From positions 2,532 to 66,531 of the forward strand of contig DUTP01000003.1 of the NCBI GenBank assembly GCA_012842045.1: a stretch of 64,000 bases of DNA. The letters run 5' to 3'. The notes beneath the pieces are model-generated. The model worked only from the letters and a program-made list of their open reading frames with translations, made no database searches and was not told where the DNA came from. The number at the start of each line of letters is the position of its first letter. Position 1 is the first letter of the stretch. Positions 1 through 55,420 of the stretch are shown in pieces. The stretch comes from Candidatus Dojkabacteria bacterium (GTDB taxonomy: Bacteria > Patescibacteriota > Dojkabacteria > SC72). Made by a program: the position numbers and the translations under genes.

Positions 1-3000
1 CTCTCCGGACGATTAAATGAATTAGTACCTAAAACAGAAAATTTAGACATACTTGTTGGCTATTTTTACATAAGCGGTTTCTATCAGTTATATAAAAACC
101 TTGAAGAGGTAGATAAGATAAGGATTTTAATCGGACTTAATACAGAATCACAGGTGGTAGATGCTGTACAAGGTAATTTGGAAATACCTTTCGAATCAGC
201 AAAGAAAGTCAAGGACAGCATAAGTAAAAAATATATTGATGAAGTTGCAGCTGCAGATGACGATGTGAATGTAGAAGAAGGAATGTTGAAGTTTGTAGAG
301 TGGTTACAGAGTGGAAAGTTACAGATAAAGATTTATGACAAGGCACCTCTTCATGCAAAGCTATATATCTTCACATTTAATGAAGGACAATTAGATCCAG
401 GTAGGGTAATTACTGGGTCTAGTAATCTTACAAGATCTGGGTTAAAGGAAAACTTAGAATTTAATGTTGAGTTGAAGAATAGCAATGATTATAAATTTGC
501 ATTAGAGAACTTTAATGCTTTATGGGATGAAGCAATAGAACTTTCTGAAACCCTCAATGAAACTATAACTAAGAAGACTCACCTTAACGAAGAAATTACT
601 CCATATCAACTCTATCTTAAATTCCTCTATGAGTATTTTAGAGAAGATTTAACTGTAGACACAGAAATAGAAGACTATATTCCAGATGGATATTTAGAAC
701 TGGAGTATCAGAAACAGGCAGTAGTCAATGCAAAGAAGATAATAGAAGAGTACGGTGGTGTTTTCATCTCAGATGTTGTTGGTCTGGGCAAAACATACAT
801 CACGGCAAGATTGTTAAATGTTTTAGGAGGTAAGACATTGGTGATTGCATCTCCTGCATTGATTGCGAAAGATAATCCAGGCTCGTGGACTAATGTTTTG
901 ATGGACTTTGGCGTAAGAGGTTTTGAGTGTGAATCTGTTGGTATGTTAGAAAAAATTCTTGAGAGAGGTGTTGATAAGTTTGATAATGTTGTTATTGATG
1001 AATCTCATAATTTTAGAAATGAAGCGACACTGTCTTTTGAAAGACTTACAGAGATATGTAGAGGTAAAAAAGTTGTCTTGGTAAGTGCTACTCCGTTTAA
1101 TAACAAACCGAGTGATTTATTAGCGCAGATTAAGCTCTTCCAAAACAGCAGGAAAAGTACTATTCCAGGGGTACCCAATCTAGAGGCATACTTTTCTAGC
1201 CTAAAATCTAGAATAGGGCAGTTAAGTAGAAGAGATAATTATGAACAGTATATGGAAGTGGCGAAAAGCAATGCTCAAGATATTAGAAATAATATTTTGA
1301 AATATCTGATGGTAAGAAGGACTAGATCTGAGATAGAGAAATATTATAGTGATGATTTGAAAAAACAAGGATTGAAATTTCCAGAAGTACATGAACCGGA
1401 ACCGATATTCTATCAACTTGATAGTGAAGAGGAAGGTGCTTTTAACAAGACAATCTCTTTTATAGAGAATTTTAAGTATAGTCGTTACATCCCATTACTT
1501 TACTATACAGGAGAGTTGACTGAGCAAGAAAGGATTTCTCAGAGAAATATGCTTACATTCATGAAAATGCTTCTACTTAAGAGGTTTGAGAGTAGTGTGT
1601 TTGCATTTAAGAAAACACTCAAAAGATTTATTCGTTCATATGAGTTAATGATAAATCAGTTCGACCAAGGGAATGTATATGTAAGCAAAAAGAGAGCAAA
1701 CAAGGTTTTCCAATTGTTAGAGGAAAACAGGATAGAGGAACTAATGGATTTGATTGAGCAGGAGAAAGTAGAGTTTTATAAGAGTGAGGATTTCAATGAG
1801 AATTTCCGAAAGGATTTGGAGTATGATTTATCTCTTTTAAGAAATCTGGATGAAATATGGGAAAATATAGATAGAGATGTGAAGTTTGAAACTTTTGTTG
1901 AAAAATTAAAGTCAGATAAGATACTAAGTAATAATAAATTAATAATATTCACAGAATCTAAAGAAACAGCCAACTATCTGTCAGAAAAAATAGAGGAACG
2001 GCTAGGTGAAGAAAATCTTAACTATACTGGTGATTCAGCAACAGCTCTAAGAGCAGATGTGATTAAGAACTTTGATGCTAAAGCTCCTAAGAAGGAGAAT
2101 ATTTACAGAATTCTTGTTACAACTGAGGTATTAGCTGAGGGTGTAAACCTACATCAGTCTAATGTTGTTATTAACTATGATATCCCATGGAATCCAACAC
2201 GACTAATGCAAAGGGTTGGAAGAATAAATCGTGTTGATACAAAGTTCAAAGATATATATACATACAACATCTTCCCTTCTGTACAATCTAATGACATTCT
2301 TAAGTTAAAAGAGGCAGCAGAAGCTAAGATACAAATGTTCATAGAACTCTTAGGTAATGATGCAAGATTACTCACAGAAGGAGAGGAGATTAAATCAAAC
2401 GAATTGTTTGATAAGTTATCATCTAAAGAAACCATTATTGGTGAAACAGAAGAAGATAGTGAGCTTAAATATCTAACTGTTATTAAAGATATTCGAGATA
2501 AAAATGTAGAACTGTTTAGTCAGATTAAAAACTTACCTAAAAAATCTCGTTCTGCTCGAAGATTAGAACAACAATCAGGTAAACTTTTGACATATTTTAA
2601 GAAAGGGAAGCTTGATAAGTTTATCATCTCTGGTAGTAAAGAACCCCAAGAGTTAGGTTTTCTTGAAGCTATAAAACTATTTGAATGTAAAGAAGATACA
2701 AAGAGAGTAAATATTCCTTCTAGTTTCTACAAACAGATTAAAAAGAATAAGGAATACTTTGGAAGTATAACCTCAGAGGAAGGTGGGATGGTTCTTGAAA
2801 CTAGAACAGGAGCATTAGACAGGAAAATTCTAAAAAGATTAAATGCAAATACAGTAAAAAGATTTGATGGATTTACTGAAGAACAAGAGGAATATCTAGA
2901 GATTGTAAAGCAGAAAATTGATGAGGGTGCTTTACCTAAGAATTCTGCTAAAAGGATTTGGGGTAAAATGAAGAATATGGTGAAGCCATTAGAGATAGTT

Positions 3001-3111
3001 AGTTTACTTCAAAAAGAAATTTCACCAAACCTTCTTAAAGATACACATTCTCAAGCTAAAGAAAGTGTATCTAATGTCAAAGAAGTTATATTATCTGAGT
3101 ATTTTGAATAA
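1..3111 (+). CDS. PLD-family (HKD) nuclease domain fused to SNF2-like SF2 helicase; 5' end lies outside the window (restriction-subunit-like)
   Basis: Frame 1 is open from nt 1 (LSGRLNELVPKTENLDILVGYFYISGF..., no stop before 154), so the track start at 154 is an artefact. HKD motif HAKLYIF...GSSNLTRSG. Helicase motifs VGLGKTYIT (I), VIDESHNF (II), SATPFNN (III), QRVGRINR (VI). Stop TAA overlaps the downstream ATG (TAATG at 3109-3113). Confidence 0.8.
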   Translation, partial: LSGRLNELVPKTENLDILVGYFYISGFYQLYKNLEEVDKIRILIGLNTESQVVDAVQGNLEIPFESAKKVKDSISKKYIDEVAAADDDVNVEEGMLKFVEWLQSGKLQIKIYDKAPLHAKLYIFTFNEGQLDPGRVITGSSNLTRSGLKENLEFNVELKNSNDYKFALENFNALWDEAIELSETLNETITKKTHLNEEITPYQLYLKFLYEYFREDLTVDTEIEDYIPDGYLELEYQKQAVVNAKKIIEEYGGVFISDVVGLGKTYITARLLNVLGGKTLVIASPALIAKDNPGSWTNVLMDFGVRGFECESVGMLEKILERGVDKFDNVVIDESHNFRNEATLSFERLTEICRGKKVVLVSATPFNNKPSDLLAQIKLFQNSRKSTIPGVPNLEAYFSSLKSRIGQLSRRDNYEQYMEVAKSNAQDIRNNILKYLMVRRTRSEIEKYYSDDLKKQGLKFPEVHEPEPIFYQLDSEEEGAFNKTISFIENFKYSRYIPLLYYTGELTEQERISQRNMLTFMKMLLLKRFESSVFAFKKTLKRFIRSYELMINQFDQGNVYVSKKRANKVFQLLEENRIEELMDLIEQEKVEFYKSEDFNENFRKDLEYDLSLLRNLDEIWENIDRDVKFETFVEKLKSDKILSNNKLIIFTESKETANYLSEKIEERLGEENLNYTGDSATALRADVIKNFDAKAPKKENIYRILVTTEVLAEGVNLHQSNVVINYDIPWNPTRLMQRVGRINRVDTKFKDIYTYNIFPSVQSNDILKLKEAAEAKIQMFIELLGNDARLLTEGEEIKSNELFDKLSSKETIIGETEEDSELKYLTVIKDIRDKNVELFSQIKNLPKKSRSARRLEQQSGKLLTYFKKGKLDKFIISGSKEPQELGFLEAIKLFECKEDTKRVNIPSSFYKQIKKNKEYFGSITSEEGGMVLETRTGALDRKILKRLNANTVKRFDGFTEEQEEYLEIVKQKIDEGALPKNSAKRIWGKMKNMVKPLEIVSLLQKEISPNLLKDTHSQAKESVSNVKEVILSEYFE

Positions 3112-6100
3112 TGACAGAGCAAGAATCAAAGAAGCTCATAACAGAGACTTTTGAAAATGATTTTGATGAGGAGAGATTTAAAAGATTCATAGCTAATTTA
3201 CTAACAGAGTTTCAAGGTGTATCAAAACATACAGATAATCAATATGTCAAGGATGCATATAAACAATATATTGAATCATATGATGTAATAGGTAAATTCT
3301 CAGATTCGCAGAAGAAAACGGTAGATGTTTTAATTGTATATCTAAAGACAGAATCGACATTTACAGCACGAACCCGTCAGAGAAACTTTGCTTTAGATTA
3401 CTTAGAAAGCAAAGCTAAGGATGGTATTTTAATTGCATATGTTCATAAGAATAAAAAGGATTGGAGATTTTCATTTGTTAAATTGGAGAGTGATGTAATA
3501 CAGGATGAAGAAGGTAGAGTTAGGGATGTTTCAATCTTTACTGCTGCTAAAAGGTCATCTTTTCTAGTTGGTTCTAATGAGAATTCATATACTGCTAAAA
3601 AACAATTTTTACCTATTCTTCAGAAGGAAGAGAAACCAACATTTGAAGATATTGAGGAGGCCTTTAGTGTAGAGACAGTAACAAAAGAATTCTTTAATAA
3701 ATATAGAGAACTTTTCCATGATGTACACGAAGCGTTAGAGAAAGAAATTAAGAAGAAACCACATATAAAAGAAGAATTTGAAACAAAAGAGATTTCAACT
3801 GTGGACTTTGCAAAAAAGTTGTTAGGACAGATGGTTTTCCTCTACTTCCTACAAAAGAAGGGATGGTTTGGAGTTGCACCTAAAGAGGAGTGGGGTACAG
3901 GTCCGAAGAATTTCTTAAGAAAACTATTTGAGAGAAAGGATAATTATGGTGAGAATTTCTTTAATGATGTTTTAAAGCCACTCTTCTATGATGCACTAGC
4001 ACAGGATCGAGGACGAGATGCAATATACTCGAGACTTAATAATTGTAGAATGCCATTTCTTAATGGAGGACTTTTTGAACCAATGAGAGGGTATTCTTGG
4101 GAGACTACTGATATATTATTGCCAGATGAGCTTTTCTCAAACGAGGATAAAGAAGGAGAAGATGTTGGTACTGGTATTTTAGATGTGTTTGACAGGTACA
4201 ATTTTACTGTAAATGAGAGTAATCCATTGGAGAAAGAGGTTGCTGTTGATCCTGAAATGTTGGGTAAGGTGTTTGAAAATCTTTTGGATGTTAAAGACAG
4301 AAAAAGTAAAGGATCTTACTATACTCCTAGAGAGATAGTTCACTATATGTGTCAAGAATGTCTAATAAACTACCTTGAAACAGAAACAAAAGGAGAAATT
4401 CCTAGAGACGATATTGAGAACCTGTTACTTCATGGTGAGTCCATTATACAGAATGACTTTGTTACTTTAGAAAAACAAAGAGAAAAGGAAGAGAAAGGGT
4501 ATAAGTATTCTGGTGAATATAAGTTAAAACTTCCAGAGTCTATACGAAAGAATGCTAGAAAGATAGATGATTTACTTAAAGATGTTAAAGTTTGTGATCC
4601 AGCAGTAGGTTCTGGAGCATTTCCATTAGGAATGATAAACGAAATTGTTGGAGCAAGACGGGTGCTTCAGGTTTACTTAAGAGATAGACTTACTATATAT
4701 GATCTTAAGTATCATGCTATTGCTAATTCTATTCATGGCGTTGATTTAGATCCAGGAGCAGTAGATATTGCAAGACTTAGACTTTGGCTTTCTTTGGTAG
4801 TTGAGGAAGAGAATCCAAGACCTCTACCTAATCTTGAACACAGAATTATGCAGGGTAACAGTTTAATATCAGAATATGAAGGGATACCGCTTTTTAACAG
4901 AGAGCTTCTTTCTGAGTTTAATAAGGAGAAATTTGTACAGTTAGGTTTTATCTTTGGTTCTGGTATTAAGAAGAAGATGGAGGAGTTAGAAAGAAGTATT
5001 AAAATGTATGTAGGTACTTCACAAAGATCAGTTAAAGAGTCTTTGGGGGATAGAATAGATGAATTGAGGTGGGAATTGATAGAGGAGACATTAAAAGAGC
5101 AGAATAAGTTAGAAAAGGTAGATGAAATTCGGGAATTAAGAGAGAAGAGTATAAGACCTTTCTTTATATGGGAGTTAGAATTTAGTGAAGTATTTATGAA
5201 AAAGGGTGGTTTTGATATTGTTATTGGAAATCCTCCGTATGTTCAACTGCAGAAAAATCATGGGGAATTAGCTAAAATGTATGAAGATACTGGTTTTAAA
5301 ACATTTACAAGGACAGGTGATATTTATACCTTGTTTTATGAAAAAGGTAATGAAATCTTACATTCCAATGGATACTTGGCATACATTACATCTAATAAAT
5401 GGATGAGAGCTGGATACGGAGAGAAGCTGAGGAAATATTTATCAGAAGAAACAACACCTACTGTTTTAATTGATTTGGGGCCAAATATTTTCGAAACAGC
5501 TACTGTTGATACAAACATTTTAATTTTTAGGAAGGGCTTTTCCGACAAGAAATGTAGATCTTGTATTTTAAGGGAAAACTTTAAGAAAAGTGGTCTTTAT
5601 CTACATGAATATGTGAAGTCAAATAATATCTTACTTGATAAGTTTACTAGTGATAGTTGGTTAATACTTTCCCCTATAGAACGAAGTATTAAAGAGAAAA
5701 TAGAGAAATATGGAACTCCTTTAAAGGATTGGGATATAAAGATTTACAGAGGTATCCTTACAGGTTGTAATGAGGCATTTATTATCGATGGGAAAAAGAA
5801 GGATGAATTAATAAAACAAGATCCTAAATCTGCTGACATTATACGACCGATTTTGAGAGGAAGGGACATAAAAAGGTTTAGTTATGACTTTGCTGATTTA
5901 TATTTAATAAATACACATAATGGAATCGAACAAAAAGGAATACCTCCTGTAAAAATTGATAATTACCCTGCAGTTAAGAAACACTTAGATACTTATTATT
6001 CTAAGCTCAAAGAGAGGGATGATAAAGGAATAACACCATATAACCTTCGTAGCTGTGCTTATATGGAGGAATTTAATAAGCAGAAAATCGTCTATTCAGA

Positions 6101-6425
6101 GATAGTACAAAGTCCTCAGTTTTTTCTTGACAAAAGAGGAGAATTCTTTGTCGAAGCTACTAGCTTTTTAATAACTGGTGAACATTTAGACTACTTAGTA
6201 GATTGGTTAAACTCACCAACAATTGCATGGGTATTCAAACAATTCTATGCTGGTGGAGGGCTAGGGAAAAAGGGGTTCAGATACAAGAAGAAATTCTTAG
6301 AACAATTACCTATTCCAAAACCTAGAAATGATATGAAATATAAAAATACTAATAATTTGATAAAGGCTTATTTGGATCTAACTGACGAAGAGATAAATTT
6401 CATTTCCTCATCTGTTAATTTGTAA
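3111..6425 (+). CDS. gamma-class N6-adenine DNA methyltransferase, Eco57I/TaqI-like family, with C-terminal target-recognition domain (TRD-1, inside the invertible segment)
   Basis: Motifs GSYYTPREIV, CDPAVGSGAFPL (SAM-binding FxGxG), GNPPYVQLQ (NPPY catalytic motif). 1104 aa. The C-terminal ~195 aa are homologous to the convergent ORF 6368..6958. Confidence 0.85.
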   Translation: MTEQESKKLITETFENDFDEERFKRFIANLLTEFQGVSKHTDNQYVKDAYKQYIESYDVIGKFSDSQKKTVDVLIVYLKTESTFTARTRQRNFALDYLESKAKDGILIAYVHKNKKDWRFSFVKLESDVIQDEEGRVRDVSIFTAAKRSSFLVGSNENSYTAKKQFLPILQKEEKPTFEDIEEAFSVETVTKEFFNKYRELFHDVHEALEKEIKKKPHIKEEFETKEISTVDFAKKLLGQMVFLYFLQKKGWFGVAPKEEWGTGPKNFLRKLFERKDNYGENFFNDVLKPLFYDALAQDRGRDAIYSRLNNCRMPFLNGGLFEPMRGYSWETTDILLPDELFSNEDKEGEDVGTGILDVFDRYNFTVNESNPLEKEVAVDPEMLGKVFENLLDVKDRKSKGSYYTPREIVHYMCQECLINYLETETKGEIPRDDIENLLLHGESIIQNDFVTLEKQREKEEKGYKYSGEYKLKLPESIRKNARKIDDLLKDVKVCDPAVGSGAFPLGMINEIVGARRVLQVYLRDRLTIYDLKYHAIANSIHGVDLDPGAVDIARLRLWLSLVVEEENPRPLPNLEHRIMQGNSLISEYEGIPLFNRELLSEFNKEKFVQLGFIFGSGIKKKMEELERSIKMYVGTSQRSVKESLGDRIDELRWELIEETLKEQNKLEKVDEIRELREKSIRPFFIWELEFSEVFMKKGGFDIVIGNPPYVQLQKNHGELAKMYEDTGFKTFTRTGDIYTLFYEKGNEILHSNGYLAYITSNKWMRAGYGEKLRKYLSEETTPTVLIDLGPNIFETATVDTNILIFRKGFSDKKCRSCILRENFKKSGLYLHEYVKSNNILLDKFTSDSWLILSPIERSIKEKIEKYGTPLKDWDIKIYRGILTGCNEAFIIDGKKKDELIKQDPKSADIIRPILRGRDIKRFSYDFADLYLINTHNGIEQKGIPPVKIDNYPAVKKHLDTYYSKLKERDDKGITPYNLRSCAYMEEFNKQKIVYSEIVQSPQFFLDKRGEFFVEATSFLITGEHLDYLVDWLNSPTIAWVFKQFYAGGGLGKKGFRYKKKFLEQLPIPKPRNDMKYKNTNNLIKAYLDLTDEEINFISSSVNL
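5839..5866 (+). repeat. left inverted repeat (28 bp, ttatacgaccgattttgagaggaaggga) inside the methyltransferase gene
   Basis: Perfect reverse complement of 6945..6972. Encodes IRPILRGRD in both genes. Imperfect similarity continues ~30 nt inward. Confidence 0.85.
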
Positions 6426-6944
6426 AGTTTTTGAATGTCGTGTAAAGAGTGTTTTCTATTCTCAATATTTAATGGTATCGGAAGTAATAATAGACGATTA
6501 ACTTTTAATTCTCCTTCAATACCACCTCCCATATAAAAATGTCGTAAAGCAAAATAACAGACATCAGAGGTCAAAAAGCTTTCTAAAGGTATAATATTTG
6601 TACCTGTTATTATATTTCCAGGTGCTACTACCATATACTCTTTAGGCACTATTGAGAAAAATGCGCCTCCTGTCATTATTGCAGGGAAAGCTATTTTCTG
6701 CTTATTAAATTCCTCCCAATAACCTATACTATCTTGTGTCTCAAACCATTTGTTATTAGTTTTCTTTCTTGCATTATTTCCTTTAATTCCATAAACATTT
6801 TTCTTACCTGATTGTTCTAACTTCTCTTTTCCAAAAGTTAGAAGATAGTCTTTTACAGCTGGATAGTCATCGATGTTATAGTTTCTAGAAGGAAAAGTTG
6901 CGATTATCCATTTATCTGCAAACTCATAAGAATACCTCTTTATA
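5867..6944. other. putative invertible DNA segment (TRD shufflon) containing two convergent, homologous TRD-coding halves
   Basis: Bounded by perfect 28-bp inverted repeats. Midpoint (~6406) falls inside the 58-nt convergent overlap of the two TRD reading frames. The codon phase is preserved across the repeats, so inversion yields an in-frame fusion. Confidence 0.7.
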
Positions 6945-6958
6945 TCCCTTCCTCTCAA
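6368..6958 (-). other. promoterless alternative TRD cassette (TRD-2), inverted homolog of the methyltransferase C-terminus
   Basis: Begins LRGRDIKRYSYEFADKW (TTG, no ATG) matching ILRGRDIKRFSYDFADLY of the methyltransferase. Shares EEFNKQKI, GGG and LPIP motifs and the terminal LTDEE.FISSSV. Reading frame stays open upstream through the repeat (RPILRGRD). Confidence 0.75.
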
Positions 6959-6972
6959 AATCGGTCGTATAA
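6945..6972 (-). repeat. right inverted repeat (28 bp), partner of 5839..5866
   Basis: tcccttcctctcaaaatcggtcgtataa is the exact reverse complement of the left repeat. Confidence 0.85.
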
Positions 6973-7657: not shown

Positions 7658-8434
7658 ATGTCTAAACTAAAAAAATATCTTCCTCTTCTCCTACTACTAA
7701 TCATATGTATATCCATATACATATATATAACAAATAAAAAAACACCAGAACAAATATCATTTGAAAAGAAATACTCATTAGAACTAAAAGAATTAAAGAA
7801 AACATATAACATAGATAAATATATATATGATTGGAATAAGGATATAGAAGGATATAAACAAATAGATCAATTAGTAAACAAACCTAAATATCAATTAACT
7901 AGAGAAAAATCAGATGTAAATGTAATATGGACATTAAAAGATGAATATACACTAGAACTAAACTGTCCTAAAGAAGATATAGATAACATTGTATATGGAG
8001 ATCCTAAAGGTTGTAATCTGAAATATAACGGTAATGTAGTAGAAGATAATGTAAGGTATGAAGTATGGGAAGATGAAGGGAGTATAGAAGGGGAGGTAAG
8101 TATGGTCATATATTCATCTAGTAAATACGAATACCTAGTAGTAGGGAAATGGGAGAGTGGTTCTAAGGATAGTATAACCATCTACAGACTAGAAGATGGA
8201 AAAGCTGTTAAAATACCGTTTAACACTAAAGATAAAAAAGAAGATAGTTGGATAGTAGAACACCCCATGTCCCTCTGGTTGTATGACAACCAAGGTAAGA
8301 AGAAGTTAGTAACATCTATCCATGACCCATCTATGTCCCATATACAAGTATTTAGAATATGGAAACCTCAAGGCGATTCTTTCATATTAGAGCAAACAAT
8401 TGGTGATATACCATTAGAAAGCTTTAAGGATTAA
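7658..8434 (+). CDS. hypothetical membrane-anchored protein
   Basis: N-terminal hydrophobic segment LPLLLLLIICISIYIYI. No recognised domain. Confidence 0.4.
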   Translation: MSKLKKYLPLLLLLIICISIYIYITNKKTPEQISFEKKYSLELKELKKTYNIDKYIYDWNKDIEGYKQIDQLVNKPKYQLTREKSDVNVIWTLKDEYTLELNCPKEDIDNIVYGDPKGCNLKYNGNVVEDNVRYEVWEDEGSIEGEVSMVIYSSSKYEYLVVGKWESGSKDSITIYRLEDGKAVKIPFNTKDKKEDSWIVEHPMSLWLYDNQGKKKLVTSIHDPSMSHIQVFRIWKPQGDSFILEQTIGDIPLESFKD

Positions 8435-8681
8435 TAATTTATGCTATTAAAGTGACAGATAATACTCTTTTATCTTCTTTGCCATTAACTTTCTTCTTTC
8501 TACTAAGAAATCTTCATAATTTGATATATCTATGTTAAAGATACTCTCAACTATACAGAATTGACTAAAAACCCTTTATAATGGTATAATTAAAGGTTCT
8601 TAATGGATCTGATATCGATTTAATCAATATATCAGGAACAAATAAAAGTACATAGCATATATTGCGTAGAAGGAGGACTAA

Positions 8682-8939
8682 ATGTCTGTGAAAGATCCCA
8701 CAACTTGGGAAGAGTTACTGGAGGAGCTTGATGAGATGATTAAGCATTTTGGAACCATAAGTAAAAGGGTTGCCAGGCTATATATCATAGCGCAAACTTT
8801 ATCTGATACGGCAACTGAAAAACAGATGCAAAGAGTAGAGCATCTATGTAATGTAGATTCTAAGGAATTATGGAAATCTTTAAAGTTTCACCTAATCGGT
8901 ATACTCTTTTACATCCAACAAAGCTTCAAAAATAACTAA
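8682..8939 (+). CDS. hypothetical small protein
   Basis: 85-aa ORF preceded by GGAGG ribosome-binding site (gaaggaggactaaATG). Confidence 0.35.
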   Translation: MSVKDPTTWEELLEELDEMIKHFGTISKRVARLYIIAQTLSDTATEKQMQRVEHLCNVDSKELWKSLKFHLIGILFYIQQSFKNN

Positions 8940-9066
8940 GAAACTCTAAGTTCTATACATGGTATGATATGACCACCTCCTCAACTTGCAATTATGCTAT
9001 GTACTAGAACTCTTTTAGTTAAAATATAGTAGGAGATTACTCTCCTACCACATTTCTTTTTCTCTG

Positions 9067-10077
9067 TTAAATCTTGTATATCAAGTACTCAGCTGTCTCT
9101 TGAAGAGGACCGTACATAATCATTCTGTACAGGTTACTATCCTGAAGGTTCAACATATAGTAACGAACGATACTTGATCCCATTATCTCTTGCTTAATAT
9201 ATACAATGTCTAATCCCTGTCCATATTCATATGTACCACCCTTAGGATTACTCATAGCTCCAACTACCTTAACAACAGATCCATAAGTTCCTCCTAATGT
9301 ATGCTTTGGATTCATTACATCTTTAAGAAGCATGTAGTTTGATGGAGGAGTAGTTTCAGATGTACTTACTTCCCAATCCTCGTTTGGACGTTTAGAATAT
9401 ATTGTATATCGTGTTGGATATGTAGCATCCTGAACATCTTTTAAGATATATTCTTCTCTTGGCTTCTCACATGTATATGCTCCATTTTCTTCTAATGTAG
9501 CAATTTTACAACTCTGTTGTTTTCTTTCAGCTATCAAACCTTGGAAAATGAATGTCTCATTTGTACCGTGATATGATCCAAATTTATCTATACTTATGAT
9601 ACTATTTTGCATCTTATACTCTCCAATATTTTCCATATTCCTTATTGCCTGATCAAAGAACTGAACGAATTCTTTAATCCTATCATCAGGAATCTTCTGG
9701 CTAGGTTGTAGAGGGAATTTAAACTCTTCATCTTGTGCTAGTACCCAGTTATATACTGGTTTTATATCAGATTGTTTTTTGGAAGTATCAGTGGCTTTTG
9801 TAGTAGTGGTAGATTCAGTTTTCTCTGTAGGTATCTCCAAATCTTTTGTATCACTTAAAACTATTTCTGGTTCAGGAGCTATATCAGAAGCATCTACAAA
9901 GTCCTTGAGCTCTACAGTAGCAGCGATTTGCTGTTCTTTCTCCTTCTTCTCTGTTGGCTCAGAGGTGAGATTAATCTGATTGTTTTTGTAGAGATAAACA
10001 AAGAGTCCAGAGACTCCGATAAGGAGGAATAGTAGAACAATACTTACTATTCTCCAAATGTTGGGTTTGTTTTCCAT
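9067..10077 (-). CDS. hypothetical membrane-anchored/secreted protein
   Basis: N-terminal signal-anchor IWRIVSIVLLFLLIGVSGLFVYLY, followed by a Thr/Lys-rich linker. Confidence 0.4.
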   Translation of the reverse strand: MENKPNIWRIVSIVLLFLLIGVSGLFVYLYKNNQINLTSEPTEKKEKEQQIAATVELKDFVDASDIAPEPEIVLSDTKDLEIPTEKTESTTTTKATDTSKKQSDIKPVYNWVLAQDEEFKFPLQPSQKIPDDRIKEFVQFFDQAIRNMENIGEYKMQNSIISIDKFGSYHGTNETFIFQGLIAERKQQSCKIATLEENGAYTCEKPREEYILKDVQDATYPTRYTIYSKRPNEDWEVSTSETTPPSNYMLLKDVMNPKHTLGGTYGSVVKVVGAMSNPKGGTYEYGQGLDIVYIKQEIMGSSIVRYYMLNLQDSNLYRMIMYGPLQETAEYLIYKI

Positions 10078-10221
10078 ATATTACTCTTTAAAATTATATT
10101 TATACTAACCATAGTATATTAGGTAATGTTGAAAGTCAATTAGTTATGTTAGATAAAAATTGGTGATATTTAATATAATCACTGTACTGCAAACTCGTTT
10201 GTTATAGGGTATAATCATAGT

Positions 10222-11460
10222 ATGAAAGGTGAATTTCTTGACAGTGAAAACAATGAAGTAGAGAAGAATGGTGAAGGCAGTAGATTATCTGTATCTCAAT
10301 TTGAGAGTCTCATACCTGTTTTCGATGAATGTAAAAAGTTTGACAGTGAATTAGAAGTTTTACAACACTTAAAGAAAAAGGAAGTAGAAGAACTTGATAT
10401 TGAAGAGGTTAGAGATAATGCAAGAGCTTCAATACGTGGGACACAAATACACCAATTACAATATTTCTATCAACTCTTCTCCAGAGTGGAGAAATTAGGA
10501 AGAAAAATTACACTGGAGGATTTTAGTAGGACATTTCCAAACAAAGATAATTTATTTAAAGATAATCTGTATTACAATGCCCTATATACCATCTATAATC
10601 TAGTAGATAACACAGAGGATCCGTTAGAATTTTGGGAAGCTTGGAGATTAAATGGACATGATTTTACCCTACCAGAAGGTATTACAGCGTTAATACCTCC
10701 AGAGGAGATTAAAGAGATGTGGGAGAGAAGTGCAGTTACAAAGGATGATATCGATAAATTTAGTCAAAATGTCTGGAAGATAGATAGGGAGAAACTAGAT
10801 CCAGATAAAGCCCTACTTGTTAATGAAGCAATGTTTGTAACGAATACCTATTTAAAAAATGGTAATCTACAAGTACCTACCATGGTAGATGAACTTGTTG
10901 TTCCAAAAGAATTTCCTAATAAACCAATACAGTTAATTGATTACAAAACAGGTAAACAATTTAAAGAACCTAGTGATATAGATAAGTTACAGATATTCTT
11001 AATGATGACCTCTGTTTTGACAAATATATATTTCAAGGTTGAAGATATACAATGGAATCAAAGTATGTGGGAGATAGCACATGATAGTTTAAGATTACCA
11101 TTTATTCCCCCAAGAAAATATTTCAATGCCATTGCTATTGGGAAGATTACAGAGGAAGATATTTTCATGGAGAGTGATTTCTTTAGGAAATTAATATTTT
11201 TTAAGTATGTAAATCCTCTCACTCAGGAAAGTATTGAGGTTAATGCAAAGGATTTAGGTATTCATAGGGATGAGGGTATAGGTGATTTTCTAGCATCTCT
11301 TGATGATTTGAACAAATTCTATACTAAATACAAAAAAATACTCAAACACAAGGTTGGAAGGAGTACATTAGTACAATATTGGATACCAGAGTTAGGATAT
11401 GATGGTTTTAAGAAGGGTAATATCTTAAAGGAACAGATGCAGGCTGGGTTGGGGTTTTAA
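10222..11460 (+). CDS. hypothetical protein
   Basis: 412-aa ORF with no recognised motif. Confidence 0.4.
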   Translation: MKGEFLDSENNEVEKNGEGSRLSVSQFESLIPVFDECKKFDSELEVLQHLKKKEVEELDIEEVRDNARASIRGTQIHQLQYFYQLFSRVEKLGRKITLEDFSRTFPNKDNLFKDNLYYNALYTIYNLVDNTEDPLEFWEAWRLNGHDFTLPEGITALIPPEEIKEMWERSAVTKDDIDKFSQNVWKIDREKLDPDKALLVNEAMFVTNTYLKNGNLQVPTMVDELVVPKEFPNKPIQLIDYKTGKQFKEPSDIDKLQIFLMMTSVLTNIYFKVEDIQWNQSMWEIAHDSLRLPFIPPRKYFNAIAIGKITEEDIFMESDFFRKLIFFKYVNPLTQESIEVNAKDLGIHRDEGIGDFLASLDDLNKFYTKYKKILKHKVGRSTLVQYWIPELGYDGFKKGNILKEQMQAGLGF

Positions 11461-11496
11461 TCTACTACCTTCGACATAGATGATATAATTAAATAT

Positions 11497-12438
11497 ATGA
11501 TTAAAGATAACTTCAAAACAGCATCAGGACATAATTGGTTATCTGGTGAAAAGGTTAATGTAGAAGAGATAAAGAGATTCTTCATCTCAAAGAAAGTAGA
11601 TGTAAAAGAAATTAATGAAACAGGTAGATTTCTAAATATTATTGGTAATCTTAATACTCAAAAAGTATTTATCAAAGTATCAACCTCAGAAGGATTAAAT
11701 GAAAAACTTCTCAATGAAATATCTTGGCATGATGAATTAAAAAGAGTAGGAATAGATTTTTATATTACACCTCTCTTAGAGAATGGATATATTGATAATA
11801 CGTTGGTATATGCAATATATGAGTTTGTAGAAGGTAATACTTTAGATTCAATGATAGAGAAGATAGATAGTAAGATATTAAAAGATCTAGCTAATATTAA
11901 TATCAGTATTGATAGTATTAAAGATATTAATCTTTTTAAGAATCAACAAGAGAGAGAACATGCAGAGAAAGCAATTACTTCAATTAAGGATAAAGCTGCT
12001 CACTACTTTAAAATAGCAGAGAATTTTGCAAAAGAGAGTGGTGAGGATTTAACAAAGTTACTTGATATTGTTAAGAACTATGAGAAGATGGATGAGATGG
12101 GTTTGAATCATAATGATTTTACTCCAAGGAATATATTGTATAGTGATGGTAAATTGATATTAACTGATGGAGAATCTGCTAGTACAACATCTCCTAGATT
12201 CTATGATGTTGCTATTATGTACACCAGACTCTATCTCACATACAGCAGACCTGATTTAGCTGAGGAGTATCTTAATGAATTTATTAAACTTCTTCCTAAA
12301 GATTATCTAGATACTTTTAACTTTGCTTTTAAGACAATGTTAGCTAGTAGAACGATAGGGGGTTTTTGGGAAGCTACAACAGGTGGTGCAGATTTAGAAT
12401 ATTGTAAGATGTTAATGGAAGAAATCTTGAGTATGTAA
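11497..12438 (+). CDS. protein-kinase-like phosphotransferase (APH/choline-kinase-like fold)
   Basis: Catalytic-loop-like LNHNDFTPRNILY (HxDxxxxN) and LTDGESA (DFG-like). Confidence 0.45.
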   Translation: MIKDNFKTASGHNWLSGEKVNVEEIKRFFISKKVDVKEINETGRFLNIIGNLNTQKVFIKVSTSEGLNEKLLNEISWHDELKRVGIDFYITPLLENGYIDNTLVYAIYEFVEGNTLDSMIEKIDSKILKDLANINISIDSIKDINLFKNQQEREHAEKAITSIKDKAAHYFKIAENFAKESGEDLTKLLDIVKNYEKMDEMGLNHNDFTPRNILYSDGKLILTDGESASTTSPRFYDVAIMYTRLYLTYSRPDLAEEYLNEFIKLLPKDYLDTFNFAFKTMLASRTIGGFWEATTGGADLEYCKMLMEEILSM

Positions 12439-14787: not shown

Positions 14788-14861
14788 CGGAATGGACGGG
14801 GGTCGAACCCGCAACCTTCGCAGTGACAGTGCGATGCTCTAACCAATTGAGCTACCACTCC
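14788..14861 (-). tRNA. tRNA-Asp (anticodon GTC)
   Basis: Reverse complement GGAGTGGTAGCTCAATTGGTTAGAGCATCGCACTGTCACTGCGAAGGTTGCGGGTTCGACCCCCGTCCATTCCG folds as a cloverleaf. Anticodon loop CTGTCAC. CCA not encoded. Confidence 0.85.
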
Positions 14862-24580: not shown

Positions 24581-24666
24581 GCTGAGGTGGTGGAACTGGC
24601 AGACACGCTACCTTGAGGTGGTAGTGGGAGTTAAATCCCTTGCAGGTTCGATTCCTGTCCTCAGCA
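24581..24666 (+). tRNA. tRNA-Leu (anticodon GAG), long variable arm
   Basis: GCTGAGG...CCTCAGCA acceptor. Anticodon loop TTGAGGT. 19-nt variable arm. Confidence 0.85.
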
Positions 24667-24676
24667 TATGTGATAT

Positions 24677-24751
24677 GGACGACTAGCTCAGCTGGTCTAG
24701 AGCATCTCGTTTACACCGAGAGGGTCACAGGTTCGAATCCTGTGTCGTCCA
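24677..24751 (+). tRNA. tRNA-Val (anticodon TAC)
   Basis: GGACGAC...GTCGTCCA acceptor. Anticodon loop TTTACAC. Confidence 0.85.
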
Positions 24752-24819
24752 TTTTCTTTTATCTACAACAAATATTGTCATTGTTGACACAGCTTAATAC
24801 TCATACTATTATAGTTTAT

Positions 24820-25074
24820 ATGAGTATTAAAAGAGCAGGATTGTTAATAGGAGGGGCAGTGATACTGGGTATCATTGCAGGTATTCTCACAAAGAATGTA
24901 TTGATAGGTATCGTCTTTGTAATTCTTGTAGGAGGATTTGGGATGATGTGGAGATATATTCGAAGGAATGAAAGGATGGATACTGCAGAGAGAGAGCATA
25001 TTCCTGAACGTACAAGTCTCTTATCCCCAGAACCTCAGCAGGAAAAGAATGAACCTCCTGTAGAAAAAATGTAA
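24820..25074 (+). CDS. small hypothetical membrane protein
   Basis: MSIKRAGLLIGGAVILGIIAGIL... with two predicted TM segments. The track ORF 24640.. overlaps the two tRNAs and was trimmed to an internal Met. Confidence 0.35.
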   Translation: MSIKRAGLLIGGAVILGIIAGILTKNVLIGIVFVILVGGFGMMWRYIRRNERMDTAEREHIPERTSLLSPEPQQEKNEPPVEKM

Positions 25075-25154
25075 TATCTCTTACCGATTTTTAATGTAGG
25101 AGTTTTAGTTTTATTTCTCAAGTTAGATTTTTGATATAATAATCAACATAGTTT

Positions 25155-25228
25155 GGATGATTAGCTCAGCTGGTTAGAGCACTACATTCACATTGTAGGG
25201 GTCATTGGTTCGAATCCAATATCATCCA
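25155..25228 (+). tRNA. tRNA-Val (anticodon CAC)
   Basis: GGATGAT...ATCATCCA acceptor. Anticodon loop TTCACAT. Confidence 0.85.
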
Positions 25229-38179: not shown

Positions 38180-38250
38180 TGCCGGATCGTCTAATGGTAG
38201 GACGACGGTCTCTGGAACCGTTAATCCTAGTTCGAATCTAGGTCCGGCAA
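38180..38250 (+). tRNA. tRNA-Gln (anticodon CTG)
   Basis: TGCCGGA...TCCGGCAA with U1-A72 pair. Anticodon loop CTCTGGA. Confidence 0.75.
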
Positions 38251-53107: not shown

Positions 53108-53266
53108 TGGTGTGGTTTTTAAATTTTAGCTGTCTTCTAGAGACCACAAATGGTCTCCCGCTCACCGACAGTCCCTTTCGGAACCATCCATAAACCTTTC
53201 GGCTTATGACCACACCAATGGCTAGCGAGACAGAAGACCATCTCTGCATTGGTGTGGTTTTTGTGC
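53104..53266 (-). ncRNA. GC-rich structured RNA element with mutually exclusive pairings (riboswitch/attenuator-like; strand uncertain)
   Basis: ~50% GC island in a 33% GC genome. Direct repeats ccattggtgtggttttt (53104-53120) and cattggtgtggttttt (53247-53262). The intervening gaccacaccaatgg (53208-53221) can pair with either copy. GAAA-capped hairpins lie between. Confidence 0.4.
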
Positions 53267-53561
53267 CATACCTACAAAAGTAGGGTTAGGCTATTCAATT
53301 GTTCCAGATTATAGCATTTTCTTTAGAAAAAAGTACAAAAAAACAAATAATAAACATATGCTGTAAAACACAACCAAAACCCTCGCCCCAACTTGCTTTT
53401 GATTATTTCCATGTTAAACAAAAATCTTGGAGAATCTTGGAATATGTTGGAAAATGTTGGTATATGTGAACTGGGTGAAATAACAGCTTTTAAGGGGTTG
53501 TAAGGCTGTTTAAACAGTTGATTACAAGCAAGCGGTGTGTTTATATGTTAAAATCTATTGA

Positions 53562-53795: not shown

Positions 53796-55387
53796 ACAAT
53801 GCAGACACCAAGAAAATTAAGGTGTTGGCATATCTAAGGAAATCAACAGAAGATAACAAAGAGGGGGAGGCTAGAAGGCAAAAAAATTCAATAGAGTATC
53901 AAAGAGAGGTAGTAAAAGAAATTGCTGAGAGAAACAATTTGGAAATTGTACGATATTTTGAAGATAGTAAAACTGGGTATAAAGCTTTTCAAAGAGAAGG
54001 GTTTGATAAGATGTTAGAATTCTTCAGAGAACAAAAACATGAAGGTGTTGTCAAAGGGATAGTTTGTTCTGAACATAACAGATTAGCTAGAAATTTTGGA
54101 GATGGAGGGTTTTTGTTGTGGTATTTACAAGATGGGTTAATAAACACCATATATACATATGACAAGATCTTCACCAATTCAGCTAGTGACCAGATGATGT
54201 TGGCTATAAACTTTGCTATGTCAAAACATTCTAGCGATGAAACAAGTTGGAGAACAAAAAGAACATGGAGTCATAGAGCACATACAGAAGGACAACCACC
54301 AAATCAGCATTTAGCAGGATATAAATATACAGGTGAAAAAGGGAAGAGATTTTGGACAGTTGACAAAAAGAATGCTCCTATCGTCAAAGAAATGTTTGAG
54401 AGGTTTGCAACAGGTGAGTATACAGTAAGTGAAATTTTTGATTATGCTGTATCAGAAGGTTTAACAAGTCCTAAAAGCAAGAAAACATATGATTCAGAGA
54501 AATCAATAAGAGGGCTATTAAAGAAAAAAGAATATACAGGAATATTTATGTATGAAGGTGAGGAAATAAAAGGGAAGTATCCACCTCTTATTAGCTCCGA
54601 ACTATTTTACAAGGTGCAAGAAGTGTTGTCGGGAACAGCACATCCTAAGACACAAGGCAAGAATGAATATGCTTATACTGGCTTAGTAAAGTGTGGTGTT
54701 TGTGGTGGGAATATGTCTGGGACTATTAGAAAAGGAATAACATATTACAGATGTCTTCATCGTTATGAACCTTGTAAGAGTAATAAAGGACAACGACCTT
54801 CTTATCTAAGAGAAACTCTTATAGATGAAGAAATTACTGAACTGTTACTAAAGATTCAGGTTTCTGACAAACAGTTTAATAAGCTAATTCCTTATGTATC
54901 TGACTTTTTTGAAGATGAGAAGTCTAAATACAGATATGAGATAATTCAACTCAAGGGCAAGCTTACAGAGGCACAAAGAAATTTAGATTTTTACAATAAA
55001 GAGTTATTCACAATAAAAAGAGTTCCCGAAAAGGAAAGAGATAAAGATTGGTTAATGGATAAAGAAGGTTTAGAAGGGCTTAGAGAAAATGCTCATCAAG
55101 AAAAAGAGATGTATGAGAGACAGATTTCTAAAGCGGAAAACTTAAAAGATACAGTTCCAACTTTAATGTTTAATTTCCTTAAGGGAATAAAAATTGTTGG
55201 TAGTAGATTTAAAACAGCTTCACCCTCTAATAAGCGACAGATTGTAGATACTCTTTGCGCGAACTTTAAGTGGAATGGCAAAGAACTAAGCTGGGAGTGG
55301 AAAAAACCATACCACCTACTTACAAATTCTAATGAAAAAAGAAGATGGCTCCGCGACCAGGACTCGAACCTGGAACCGAACGGTTAA
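53792..55387 (+). CDS. large serine recombinase (phage-integrase type)
   Basis: N-terminal resolvase domain KVLAYLRKSTEDN. Recombinase domain. Zinc ribbon CGVCGGNMSG...YYRCLHRYEPC. Coiled-coil. The last 14 codons run into tRNA-Asn on the opposite strand. Confidence 0.8.
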   Translation: MNNADTKKIKVLAYLRKSTEDNKEGEARRQKNSIEYQREVVKEIAERNNLEIVRYFEDSKTGYKAFQREGFDKMLEFFREQKHEGVVKGIVCSEHNRLARNFGDGGFLLWYLQDGLINTIYTYDKIFTNSASDQMMLAINFAMSKHSSDETSWRTKRTWSHRAHTEGQPPNQHLAGYKYTGEKGKRFWTVDKKNAPIVKEMFERFATGEYTVSEIFDYAVSEGLTSPKSKKTYDSEKSIRGLLKKKEYTGIFMYEGEEIKGKYPPLISSELFYKVQEVLSGTAHPKTQGKNEYAYTGLVKCGVCGGNMSGTIRKGITYYRCLHRYEPCKSNKGQRPSYLRETLIDEEITELLLKIQVSDKQFNKLIPYVSDFFEDEKSKYRYEIIQLKGKLTEAQRNLDFYNKELFTIKRVPEKERDKDWLMDKEGLEGLRENAHQEKEMYERQISKAENLKDTVPTLMFNFLKGIKIVGSRFKTASPSNKRQIVDTLCANFKWNGKELSWEWKKPYHLLTNSNEKRRWLRDQDSNLEPNG

Positions 55388-55420
55388 CAGCCGTTTGCTC
55401 TACCATTGAGCTATCGCGGA
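55346..55420 (-). tRNA. tRNA-Asn (anticodon GTT), CCA encoded
   Basis: Reverse complement TCCGCGATAGCTCAATGGTAGAGCAAACGGCTGTTAACCGTTCGGTTCCAGGTTCGAGTCCTGGTCGCGGAGCCA. Confidence 0.85.

Follow-up and report, generated by a model that had tools for sequence, protein, structure and literature searches.

A PLD-helicase and adenine methyltransferase gene pair with a four-state invertible target recognition domain in Candidatus Dojkabacteria

Introduction

Type ISP restriction enzymes, such as LlaGI and LlaBIII, combine in a single polypeptide an Mrr/PD-(D/E)xK nuclease, a superfamily 2 (SF2) double-stranded DNA (dsDNA) translocase, a gamma-class N6-adenine methyltransferase and one target recognition domain (TRD) that serves both activities. 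Here we describe a locus in which a nuclease, a translocase, a gamma-class methyltransferase and a TRD are likewise combined, in two open reading frames (ORFs) at the start of a 64,000-nt stretch of Candidatus Dojkabacteria bacterium DNA (GCA_012842045.1, contig DUTP01000003.1, positions 2,532 to 66,531; hereafter the window). The first gene encodes a phospholipase D (PLD) nuclease domain joined to a Swi2/Snf2 helicase, and the second encodes the methyltransferase with its TRD.

Among multi-gene systems, MANTIS (Gao_RL / Gao_29; BREX-related type 2) has an effector composed of an HKD/PLD nuclease and an SF2 Swi2/Snf2-like ATPase (bioRxiv 10.64898/2026.09.23.753747). The likeness to our locus lies in the HKD/PLD domain, which is N-terminal and fused to the Swi2/Snf2 motor, and in a separate N6-adenine methyltransferase, which in MANTIS sets the specificity of both methylation and restriction; a SauUSI-like translocating dimer has been proposed for that system.

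Milman, Yelin and Kishony (NAR 2023, PMC9881135) have tabulated cases in which programmed inversions occur in the gene of a Cj0031-like Type II enzyme and a PLD+SNF helicase gene lies next to it, with loci in Bacteroides ovatus (CP083813.1 5322008-5329826 and CP044495.1) and homologues in three phyla. In these loci, as in ours, inversions hit an Eco57I/Cj0031-like methyltransferase gene, and a PLD (cd09178) plus SNF helicase (cd18793) gene adjoins it. The architecture with programmed inversion is already tabulated there, so it is not new to the literature. The table entries, which were all that a literature search for a named or characterised system of this architecture returned, give context alone, without mechanism, specificity data or a family survey. 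Compared with these entries, the Dojkabacteria locus differs in its host, a member of the candidate phyla radiation (CPR), in its Mpi-type serine invertase, in its two nested repeat pairs and in its four alleles. In our locus, the inverted repeats overlap the methyltransferase coding sequence, the PLD+SNF helicase coding sequence is adjacent, and the variants coexist, as separate assemblies rather than as long reads of one culture.

In our analysis, the locus proves to be genuine and intact: it holds a two-gene restriction-modification-like module of wide distribution, equipped here with a four-state switch whose activity is demonstrable.

Results

Four inversion states of the methyltransferase gene

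The initial annotation ended the locus at position 6425, the methyltransferase stop codon. The functional unit extends to 7621, and the part that was missed, an inverted TRD cassette and an invertase gene, accounts for the best-documented property of the locus (Table 1). Specifically, the minus-strand ORF 6368-6958 matches the C-terminal part of PADLOC Type IIG models, and the cassette that contains it is 36% identical to methyltransferase aa 915-1102. From these matches, we read the ORF as a second, silent copy of the end of the TRD; it and the expressed copy are arranged tail to tail. Two inverted-repeat pairs, one nested in the other, bracket the cassettes and divide each copy into two half-cassettes. 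The outer pair has a perfect 28-nt core, TTATACGACCGATTTTGAGAGGAAGGGA, which encodes IRPILRGRD in the expressed copy, while the inner pair, 30 nt long and 93% complementary, has the left arm TTATATGGAGGAATTTAATAAGCAGAAAAT, encoding YMEEFNKQKI.

We simulated inversions of the window at either repeat pair, outer or inner, or at both. Four methyltransferases are predicted, of 1104 aa (A1A2, the state of the window), 1100 aa (A1B2), 1110 aa (B1B2) and 1114 aa (B1A2), and the 90%-identity clusters around the window methyltransferase hold proteins of exactly these four lengths. The database protein P0247 shows 0 differences from predicted B1A2 in 1114 residues. P0253 corresponds to B1B2, and P0122 and P0251 correspond to A1B2, the differences being only strain polymorphisms in the constant part. 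Both silent half-cassettes are thus found expressed in nature, B2 in P0122, P0251 and P0253, and B1 in P0247 and P0253.

The rearrangements can also be read directly from DNA. In a sister strain (L003), only the inner segment 6065-6722 is inverted, with the crossover in the inner repeat; in a second contig (L087), the entire outer segment is inverted; and in a third (L086), the A1 and B1 half-cassettes are swapped, A1 being relocated and inverted, while the inner segment keeps its original orientation. The outer repeat is the crossover site in both L087 and L086. Because L086 is 99.8% identical to the window, it represents the window's own strain in another state. All four states are present in public assemblies or environmental DNA, with the junctions inside the repeats. 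The four-state inversion is demonstrated at the DNA level, and this component of the locus, taken by itself, is close to certain.

The gene that starts 41 bases past the outer repeat encodes, by its domain and family matches, an Mpi-family serine invertase. It scores 330 bits against NCBIfam NF009949, 'master DNA invertase Mpi family' (cutoff 272, residues 1-198), and its active-site Ser lies within a YIRVSTDKQ motif. We infer that this adjacent enzyme catalyses the inversions and that the recognised sequence changes on switching. A weak search of the window for further invertase sites, with a motif derived from the two repeat pairs themselves, returned only a single unpaired site, which has one mismatch.

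At their 3′ ends, the two cassettes, expressed and silent, overlap antisense by 58 nt (6368-6425) in near-palindromic DNA. Its plus strand encodes ...LTDEEINFISSSVNL and its minus strand ...LTDEEMKFISSSVRSK; the codons for LTDEE in this overlap read SSSV when reverse-complemented. We considered positions 6378-6419 as a bidirectional terminator hairpin and rejected this candidate, as the stability of its RNA fold does not exceed that of shuffled sequence (z = 0.02).

Table 1. Coordinates of the restriction-modification-like module, its invertible cassettes and the invertase gene in the window
Feature	Coordinates	Strand	Basis or remark
PLD(HKD)-Swi2/Snf2 helicase-nuclease subunit gene	1..3111	+	5′ end truncated by 17 codons; full length 1053 aa
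Predicted single-HKD PLD nuclease domain	37..525	+	HxK HAKLYIF nt 352-372; GSxN GSSNLT 415-432
Swi2/Snf2 ATPase core	781..2235	+	Pfam, motif positions and Foldseek matches
Walker A GLGKT	781-795	+	motif in ATPase core
DESH	997-1008	+	motif in ATPase core
SATP	1084-1095	+	motif in ATPase core
Helicase_C	1897-2235	+	Pfam region in ATPase core
Motif VI QRVGRINR	2209-2232	+	motif in ATPase core
TAATG stop/start overlap, helicase/methyltransferase	3109..3113	+	TAA 3109-3111, ATG 3111-3113, one base shared
Gamma-class N6-adenine methyltransferase-TRD subunit gene, state A1A2, 1104 aa	3111..6425	+	Pfam Eco57I, N6_Mtase, TaqI_C
Family-specific N-terminal alpha/beta domain, aa 1-175	3111..3635	+	AlphaFold2 model, conserved residues
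Methyltransferase catalytic region	4596..5240	+	motif I DPAVGSGAF 4596-4622; motif IV NPPY 5229-5240
Outer inverted repeat, left arm	5839..5908	+	perfect 28-nt core 5839-5866
Half-cassette A1, first variable part of expressed TRD, ~aa 920-983	5867..6058	+	database proteins and inversions simulated in silico
Inner inverted repeat, left arm	6059..6088	+	
Half-cassette A2, second variable part and C-terminus of expressed TRD	6089..6425	+	
Silent inverted TRD cassette	6368-6972	-	ORF 6368-6958 within
Silent half-cassette B2	6368..6692	-	3′ end overlaps A2 3′ end antisense, 6368-6425
Inner inverted repeat, right arm	6693..6722	-	repeat search
Silent half-cassette B1	6723..6944	-	
Outer inverted repeat, right arm	6903..6972	-	perfect core 6945-6972
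Mpi-family serine DNA invertase gene, 202 aa	7013..7621	+	Pfam Resolvase E 5.7e-34, HTH_7

A single-HKD nuclease fused to a Swi2/Snf2 motor

Frame 1 is open from the first base of the window through 3111, and the complete helicase gene lies at L001:6840-10001 on the source contig (L001). The initial annotation had described a PLD(HKD)-SNF2 fusion coupled to a gamma-class N6-adenine methyltransferase, a description upheld by the Pfam domains of both products, their intact motifs and the TAATG overlap; it had also held that the N-terminus, with a first HKD motif, was cut off by the window edge. The N-terminus is indeed cut, and the 17 residues beyond the edge, read from the extended contig, are MPTNQISEFITNKDGNT. 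However, no first HKD motif is lost with them: the PLDc_2 match (aa 13-175, E 1.2e-11) spans model positions 10-132 of 132, and the domain is a single-HKD one of the Nuc/BfiI/SauUSI kind from which nothing catalytic is cut off. Further Pfam matches are to RE_NgoFVII PLD, to ResIII/SNF2-rel_dom and to Helicase_C (E 1.5e-20). The catalytic H, K and N of the PLD domain are present, and H135, K137 and G156-S-S-N159 (full-length numbering) are invariant among 36 homologues, as are the ATPase motifs GLGKT, DExH and QRxGR.

The AlphaFold2 (AF2) model of the helicase has a pLDDT (predicted local distance difference test) score of 82, and its best PDB matches by Foldseek are RapA, CSB, Chd1 and ISW1. 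Bacterial RapA and the eukaryotic Swi2/Snf2 remodellers are dsDNA translocases rather than strand-separating helicases. The model also matches SauUSI (7clg; E 3e-12) across 834-910 alignment columns. No target reader is recognisable in the helicase-nuclease subunit itself, as judged from its domain content.

The helicase belongs to a large family, with more than 7900 homologues at E ≤ 1e-10. Many of these are about 1060 aa long and 50-54% identical, and come from Elusimicrobia, Planctomycetes, Dehalococcoidia, Nitrospirae, Bacteroidales, CPR groups and Methanoperedens, while a plasmid collection yielded only distant relatives (≤33.5% identity). The top PADLOC match of the helicase, 'C3a139 HKD+Snf2', has its origin in a listing of gene clusters accessory to type III CRISPR; we set it aside, there being no CRISPR-cas context at the locus. 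In one relative (L085:4006-8001), the helicase gene has 922 codons with no PLD domain called and lies just downstream of an insertion sequence (DDE_3 transposase plus HTH), whose insertion may have cost it the nuclease domain.

A gamma-class methyltransferase with a family-specific N-terminal domain

The window methyltransferase is identical to HHX99311.1 of a Candidatus Dojkabacteria metagenome-assembled genome (MAG). It matches Eco57I (E 2e-41), N6_Mtase and TaqI_C in Pfam and, as top PADLOC model, REase_MTase_IIG with 887 bits; its PDB relatives are CamA, BseCI and PglX/BrxX. It is assigned to the gamma class because motif I precedes motif IV and the TRD is C-terminal. The family of its homologues is about as broad taxonomically as that of the helicase.

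The first 175 residues form a predicted alpha/beta domain (AF2 pLDDT 82.5) with the invariant residues R87, R91, N92, W118, S121, R148, S150, E157 and T161. With clustering at 50% identity, 2798 representatives carry the domain, in every case N-terminally in a protein of about 1050-1300 aa. A Pfam scan of aa 1-422 gave no match, a profile of aa 1-262 gave no match to PDB sequences, Foldseek of the AF2 model against PDB returned nothing below E 0.01, and no conserved (D/E)xK motif was found in 118 methyltransferase homologues. In sequence and in predicted structure, the domain is not a recognisable nuclease, and the initial description of the methyltransferase as nuclease-less stands as far as it is testable. 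The domain may instead provide a docking surface for the helicase subunit.

Two genes inherited as one unit

We assembled a synteny set of 81 loci, comprising 80 fetched loci, one genome per species, and the window's own contig. In 73 of the 81 loci, the helicase gene is followed by a methyltransferase gene in the same orientation, and the remaining loci are cut off by contig ends. The two-gene architecture of the window thus recurs in related genomes, and the pair is found across many bacterial phyla and in archaeal Methanoperedens; look-ups from the methyltransferase side, in Dehalococcoides and other loci, again placed the helicase upstream. Across 51 loci, the pairwise identity matrix of one protein is correlated with that of the other (Mantel r 0.57, a value reached in 0 of 999 permutations). 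The stop/start overlap is not conserved, being replaced elsewhere by gaps of about 10-25 nt or by inserted genes, and the 1:1 coupling that the initial annotation drew from it does not hold up, as stoichiometry is not readable from such an overlap. Clustering of all ORFs of at least 70 aa across the 81 loci identified no conserved third gene, no other cluster occurring in more than nine loci, and the genes directly upstream, between and downstream of the pair are variable defence or hitchhiker genes only. Adjacency, frequent stop/start proximity and correlated divergence lead us to regard the pair as one functional unit, with a core of two co-inherited, functionally linked genes.

These observations bear on whether the two proteins could be independent enzymes that merely lie side by side, one a self-sufficient Type IIG methyltransferase with a cryptic N-terminal nuclease, the other a SauUSI-like Type IV PLD-helicase attacking modified foreign DNA. 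The best PADLOC model of the methyltransferase and the SauUSI match of the helicase model would fit such an arrangement, and the order of secondary structure elements in the N-terminal domain (alpha-beta-beta-beta-alpha-beta) loosely resembles a PD-(D/E)xK core. However, that domain has neither a conserved (D/E)xK motif nor a Pfam, PDB sequence or Foldseek match, the helicase lacks the DUF3427 reader of SauUSI, and strict adjacency, frequent stop/start proximity and correlated divergence argue for one functional unit. We consider this explanation very unlikely.

The switch is an occasional addition to the pair

Among 41 representative loci with enough downstream sequence, an inverted TRD copy was found in only about 2. 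TRD inversion is an occasional add-on to the helicase-methyltransferase family, one that has evolved with different recombinases. The switch has an independent counterpart in a gammaproteobacterial MAG (L052:16522-19956). There, a silent TaqI_C cassette in inverted orientation, roughly 1.5-2.3 kb downstream of the stop codon of the methyltransferase gene, sits beside a tyrosine recombinase (Phage_integrase) gene, with a MazF toxin gene in between. In a Dehalococcoides mccartyi MAG (L084:4196-12224), the order is PLD-helicase, NYN-domain gene, methyltransferase and, at the contig end, a 300-aa inverted TaqI_C ORF that is probably another invertible TRD.

The rarity of the switch weighs on a further explanation, in which the locus is mainly a phasevarion: the invertible methyltransferase would alter genome-wide N6-methyladenine and gene expression, and the helicase-nuclease would add little. 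Four alternative TRD alleles in natural populations speak for it, and phase-variable Type I, Type III and Type IIG methyltransferases, Cj0031 among them, are well documented as regulators. Yet the motifs of the nuclease and of the ATPase do not vary across the family and are intact in this locus, the surrounding genes form a defence island, and the small number of loci with an invertible cassette implies that the core function of the pair is independent of switching. As the main role of the locus, regulation of this kind is rather unlikely, although it is compatible with a restriction function and does not exclude one.

Comparison with known restriction and defence systems

The locus differs from Type ISP in two respects. 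The activities are divided between two ORFs (1-3111 and 3111-6425) by a stop codon, as they are in 73 of the 81 loci, and the nuclease is of the PLDc_2/HKD type; Pfam searches of both proteins detected no PD-(D/E)xK domain. The initial proposal of a split Type ISP-like enzyme is therefore reduced to a functional analogy, since the locus does not belong to Type ISP itself. As an analogy, it is reasonable, because the pair is linked, no partner genes lie upstream and the PLD residues are invariant. Type IIG enzymes (Eco57I/MmeI/Cj0031) share the gamma-class methyltransferase and C-terminal TRD in one chain, but their in-chain N-terminal PD-(D/E)xK endonuclease was not found here. The two-subunit logic of Type III enzymes is similar, but their Mod subunit is beta-class with a central TRD and their Res subunit is an SF2 helicase with a C-terminal PD-(D/E)xK domain, whereas here the methyltransferase is gamma-class and the PLD domain N-terminal. 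SauUSI (Type IV, PDB 7CLG) likewise joins an N-terminal single-HKD PLD domain to an SF2 helicase-like motor in one chain; it differs in having its own reader, a modified-cytosine target and no partner methyltransferase, whereas the Dojkabacteria helicase is paired with a methyltransferase-TRD subunit.

As in the Type I hsdS shufflons (SpnD39III ivr, Bacteroides fragilis), inversion swaps half-specificity modules with silent copies, several alleles result and a recombinase gene is adjacent. However, the shufflons act on a separate S subunit with two TRDs, while here the C-terminal ~190 aa of the methyltransferase itself are exchanged and the cassettes overlap tail to tail.

Multi-gene systems also share some of the parts. 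In class 1 DISARM (DrmA, DrmB, DrmC PLD, DrmD SNF2, DrmMI), a PLD nuclease and an SNF2 helicase occur together with an adenine methyltransferase that is Eco57I-like, and our proteins give significant partial matches to DrmD and DrmMI. The resemblance to drmC/drmD pointed out in the initial annotation thus holds for the shared PLD and SNF2 domains and the sub-threshold DrmD match, but the PLD and SNF2 parts are fused here, and neither DrmA (YprA-like) nor DrmB (DUF1998) is present. The bit scores against the curated models fall far short, with 127 bits against a cutoff of 610 (NF038317) and 60 against 950 (NF038318) for DrmD, 137 against 1100 for the MtsD-type 'phospholipD_antiphage' model (NF042964), and 90 against 500 for PglX (NF033452). 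With no PglZ or BrxC in the flanks, the locus does not qualify as BREX. MANTIS differs in requiring MtsA, a DUF499 AAA+ ATPase, and MtsB (DUF3780/3870), neither of which is found in the flanks here or recurs in the 81 loci, and in its methyltransferase MtsC, which is alpha-class with a central TRD, whereas the Dojkabacteria enzyme is gamma-class with a C-terminal TRD.

The locus could nonetheless be a piece of a multi-gene BREX-related, DISARM or MANTIS system, or else a minimal relative of one, and depend on partners encoded at a distance, for instance a YprA/DrmAB helicase or a DUF499/BrxC-like ATPase. The pairing of a Swi2/Snf2 helicase with a PglX-like methyltransferase is common to DISARM class 1, ARMADA, BREX type 3 and BR systems, the DrmD, DrmMI, PglX and 'phospholipD_antiphage' models all match below threshold, and the MANTIS methyltransferase depends on MtsA and MtsB. 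However, no DUF499, DUF3780, DUF1998, PglZ or other conserved third gene occurs within 10 kb in the 81 loci, every curated NCBIfam cutoff is missed by a wide margin, and the MANTIS methyltransferase is of another class. In addition, the flanks in the source genome are housekeeping genes or the PARIS gene on the opposite strand, and L003 keeps the same two genes despite a different upstream flank. Dependence on distant partners is therefore decidedly unlikely. The pair is best seen as a minimal form of the Swi2/Snf2-helicase plus PglX-like-methyltransferase module (DISARM class 1, ARMADA, BREX type 3, BR) in which the nuclease is fused to the helicase; it is functionally like Type ISP, Type III and MANTIS and is a member of none of them.

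Proposed mechanism

By analogy with these systems, we consider it probable that the locus encodes a two-subunit ATP-dependent restriction-modification module with a four-state specificity switch. The TaqI_C-type TRD of the methyltransferase subunit would read a short DNA target, and host DNA would be marked there by N6-adenine methylation. At unmethylated sites, the methyltransferase-TRD subunit would recruit the helicase-nuclease, possibly through its conserved N-terminal domain. The helicase subunit would dimerise via its PLD domains into one active site, by analogy with BfiI, SauUSI and MtsD, for which a one-active-site PLD dimer has been described (bioRxiv 10.64898/2026.09.23.753747), and the recruited motor would translocate with ATP hydrolysis and cut foreign DNA. 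The Mpi-family invertase would recombine the nested pairs 5839-5866/6945-6972 and 6059-6088/6693-6722, swapping TRD half-cassettes with their silent opposite-strand copies to give A1A2, A1B2, B1B2 and B1A2. Because one subunit sets the specificity of both activities, a single DNA inversion would retarget modification and restriction together. The physical coupling of the subunits and the cleavage of unmethylated DNA are inferred, as are the change of recognised sequence and the role of this invertase.

Several points weigh against this scheme. The C-terminal ~250 aa of the helicase have no assigned function and could contain a DNA reader of their own. The MANTIS methyltransferase is inactive without two further proteins, and its cleavage has not been reconstituted in vitro (bioRxiv 10.64898/2026.09.23.753747); given this precedent, a two-protein system may be an oversimplification. 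The four states come from different assemblies, not from one population. A switch made while active nuclease is present should expose the chromosome, unmethylated at the new sites, which raises the question of how a cell survives a change of specificity. Finally, a search of the literature for experiments on the helicase-methyltransferase family found none.

A broader proposal, which we put forward tentatively and rate as possible rather than probable, is that the family constitutes an unclassified, widespread class of ATP-dependent restriction enzymes. In such enzymes, a dimeric SauUSI-like motor would be aimed in trans by a gamma-methyltransferase-TRD subunit via its N-terminal domain, making them a 'split Type ISP' with an HKD nuclease, filed as Type IIG since only the methyltransferase is recognised; in Dojkabacteria, each half-cassette would set part of the recognition sequence.

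If the proteins work as we propose, they would represent the smallest known arrangement in which a PLD nuclease forms the basis of a restriction enzyme that translocates and is guided by methylation. MANTIS, DISARM and ARMADA, in which the effector steps are still to be worked out, would then have a simpler system for comparison. The family is large and probably under-annotated as 'Type IIG' plus 'helicase-related protein', and defence-system censuses may consequently misclassify it. Through the four-state switch, nature supplies a series of chimeric TRDs with which the bases read by each part of a TaqI_C-type TRD could be mapped. The switch also shows a CPR bacterium investing in phase-variable immunity or epigenetics.

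Genomic surroundings

A 752,854-bp contig (GCA_036836175.1), on which the helicase gene has its full 1053 codons, also encodes the window methyltransferase and is identical to the window throughout the 16.4 kb that we compared; metagenome contigs from JGI and ENA encode it as well. Extending the source contig upstream revealed no complete DISARM, BREX or MANTIS system, and no DrmA, DrmB, BREX or MANTIS partner genes lie within 10 kb in L001 or L003. Immediately upstream of window base 1, on the strand opposite to the helicase (L001:4836-6521, minus), is a gene for a 561-aa DUF4435 protein, which matches the PADLOC fused PARIS AriAB model over its full length with 315 bits. Beyond it lie mnmA and sufBD, and downstream of the locus are CPR hypothetical proteins and housekeeping genes. 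By gene content, the AriAB gene and the restriction module make up a small defence island in a CPR genome.

The AriAB gene is absent in the sister strain L003, which has the same two core genes at 97% DNA identity to the window. In the flanks of the two strains (L003:1-2700 and L001:1-6943), an ABC-transporter gene is only 82% identical, and 5.7 kb of L001 (sufBD, mnmA, AriAB) is replaced by 1.4 kb (ddl) in L003. A module at 97% beside a flank at 82% and a replaced segment suggests either that the module was recently exchanged by horizontal transfer or that this position holds a variable island.

Elsewhere in the family, Fic, AbiEii, Bro-N/ORF6N and Schlafen-AlbA_2 genes sit between the two core genes in some loci, and OLD/ABC ATPases, AAA_13, pAgo, ApeA, UvrD or a C5 methyltransferase follow immediately downstream in others; genes of this sort are the usual company of restriction operons and defence islands. 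In five loci (L072:9915-11942, L028:17695-19101, L078:9761-11140, L019:16629-18713 and L083:17353-19617), unrelated defence genes start a few bases from the methyltransferase stop, and encode pAgo (Piwi), ApeA (HEPN; two cases), an OLD-family ATPase-TOPRIM protein and AAA_13. Their position suggests operonic 'backup' effectors riding on the two-gene core.

Downstream of the invertase gene, the window contains five ORFs of 258, 85, 336, 412 and 313 aa (7658-12438). They have no firm Pfam or PADLOC assignment, and none of them recurs beside the system in other genomes; weak matches are ferritin-like for the 85-aa ORF (E 0.0096) and APH and PD-T4-6 for the last, 313-aa ORF. Further along, the window contains a cluster of three tRNA genes (24581-25228, plus strand), single tRNA genes at 14788-14861 (minus), 38180-38250 (plus) and 55349-55420 (minus), and a full-length Rfam LOOT RNA (RF03000) at 53167-53292 (minus), with 74.5 bits against a gathering score of 46.4.

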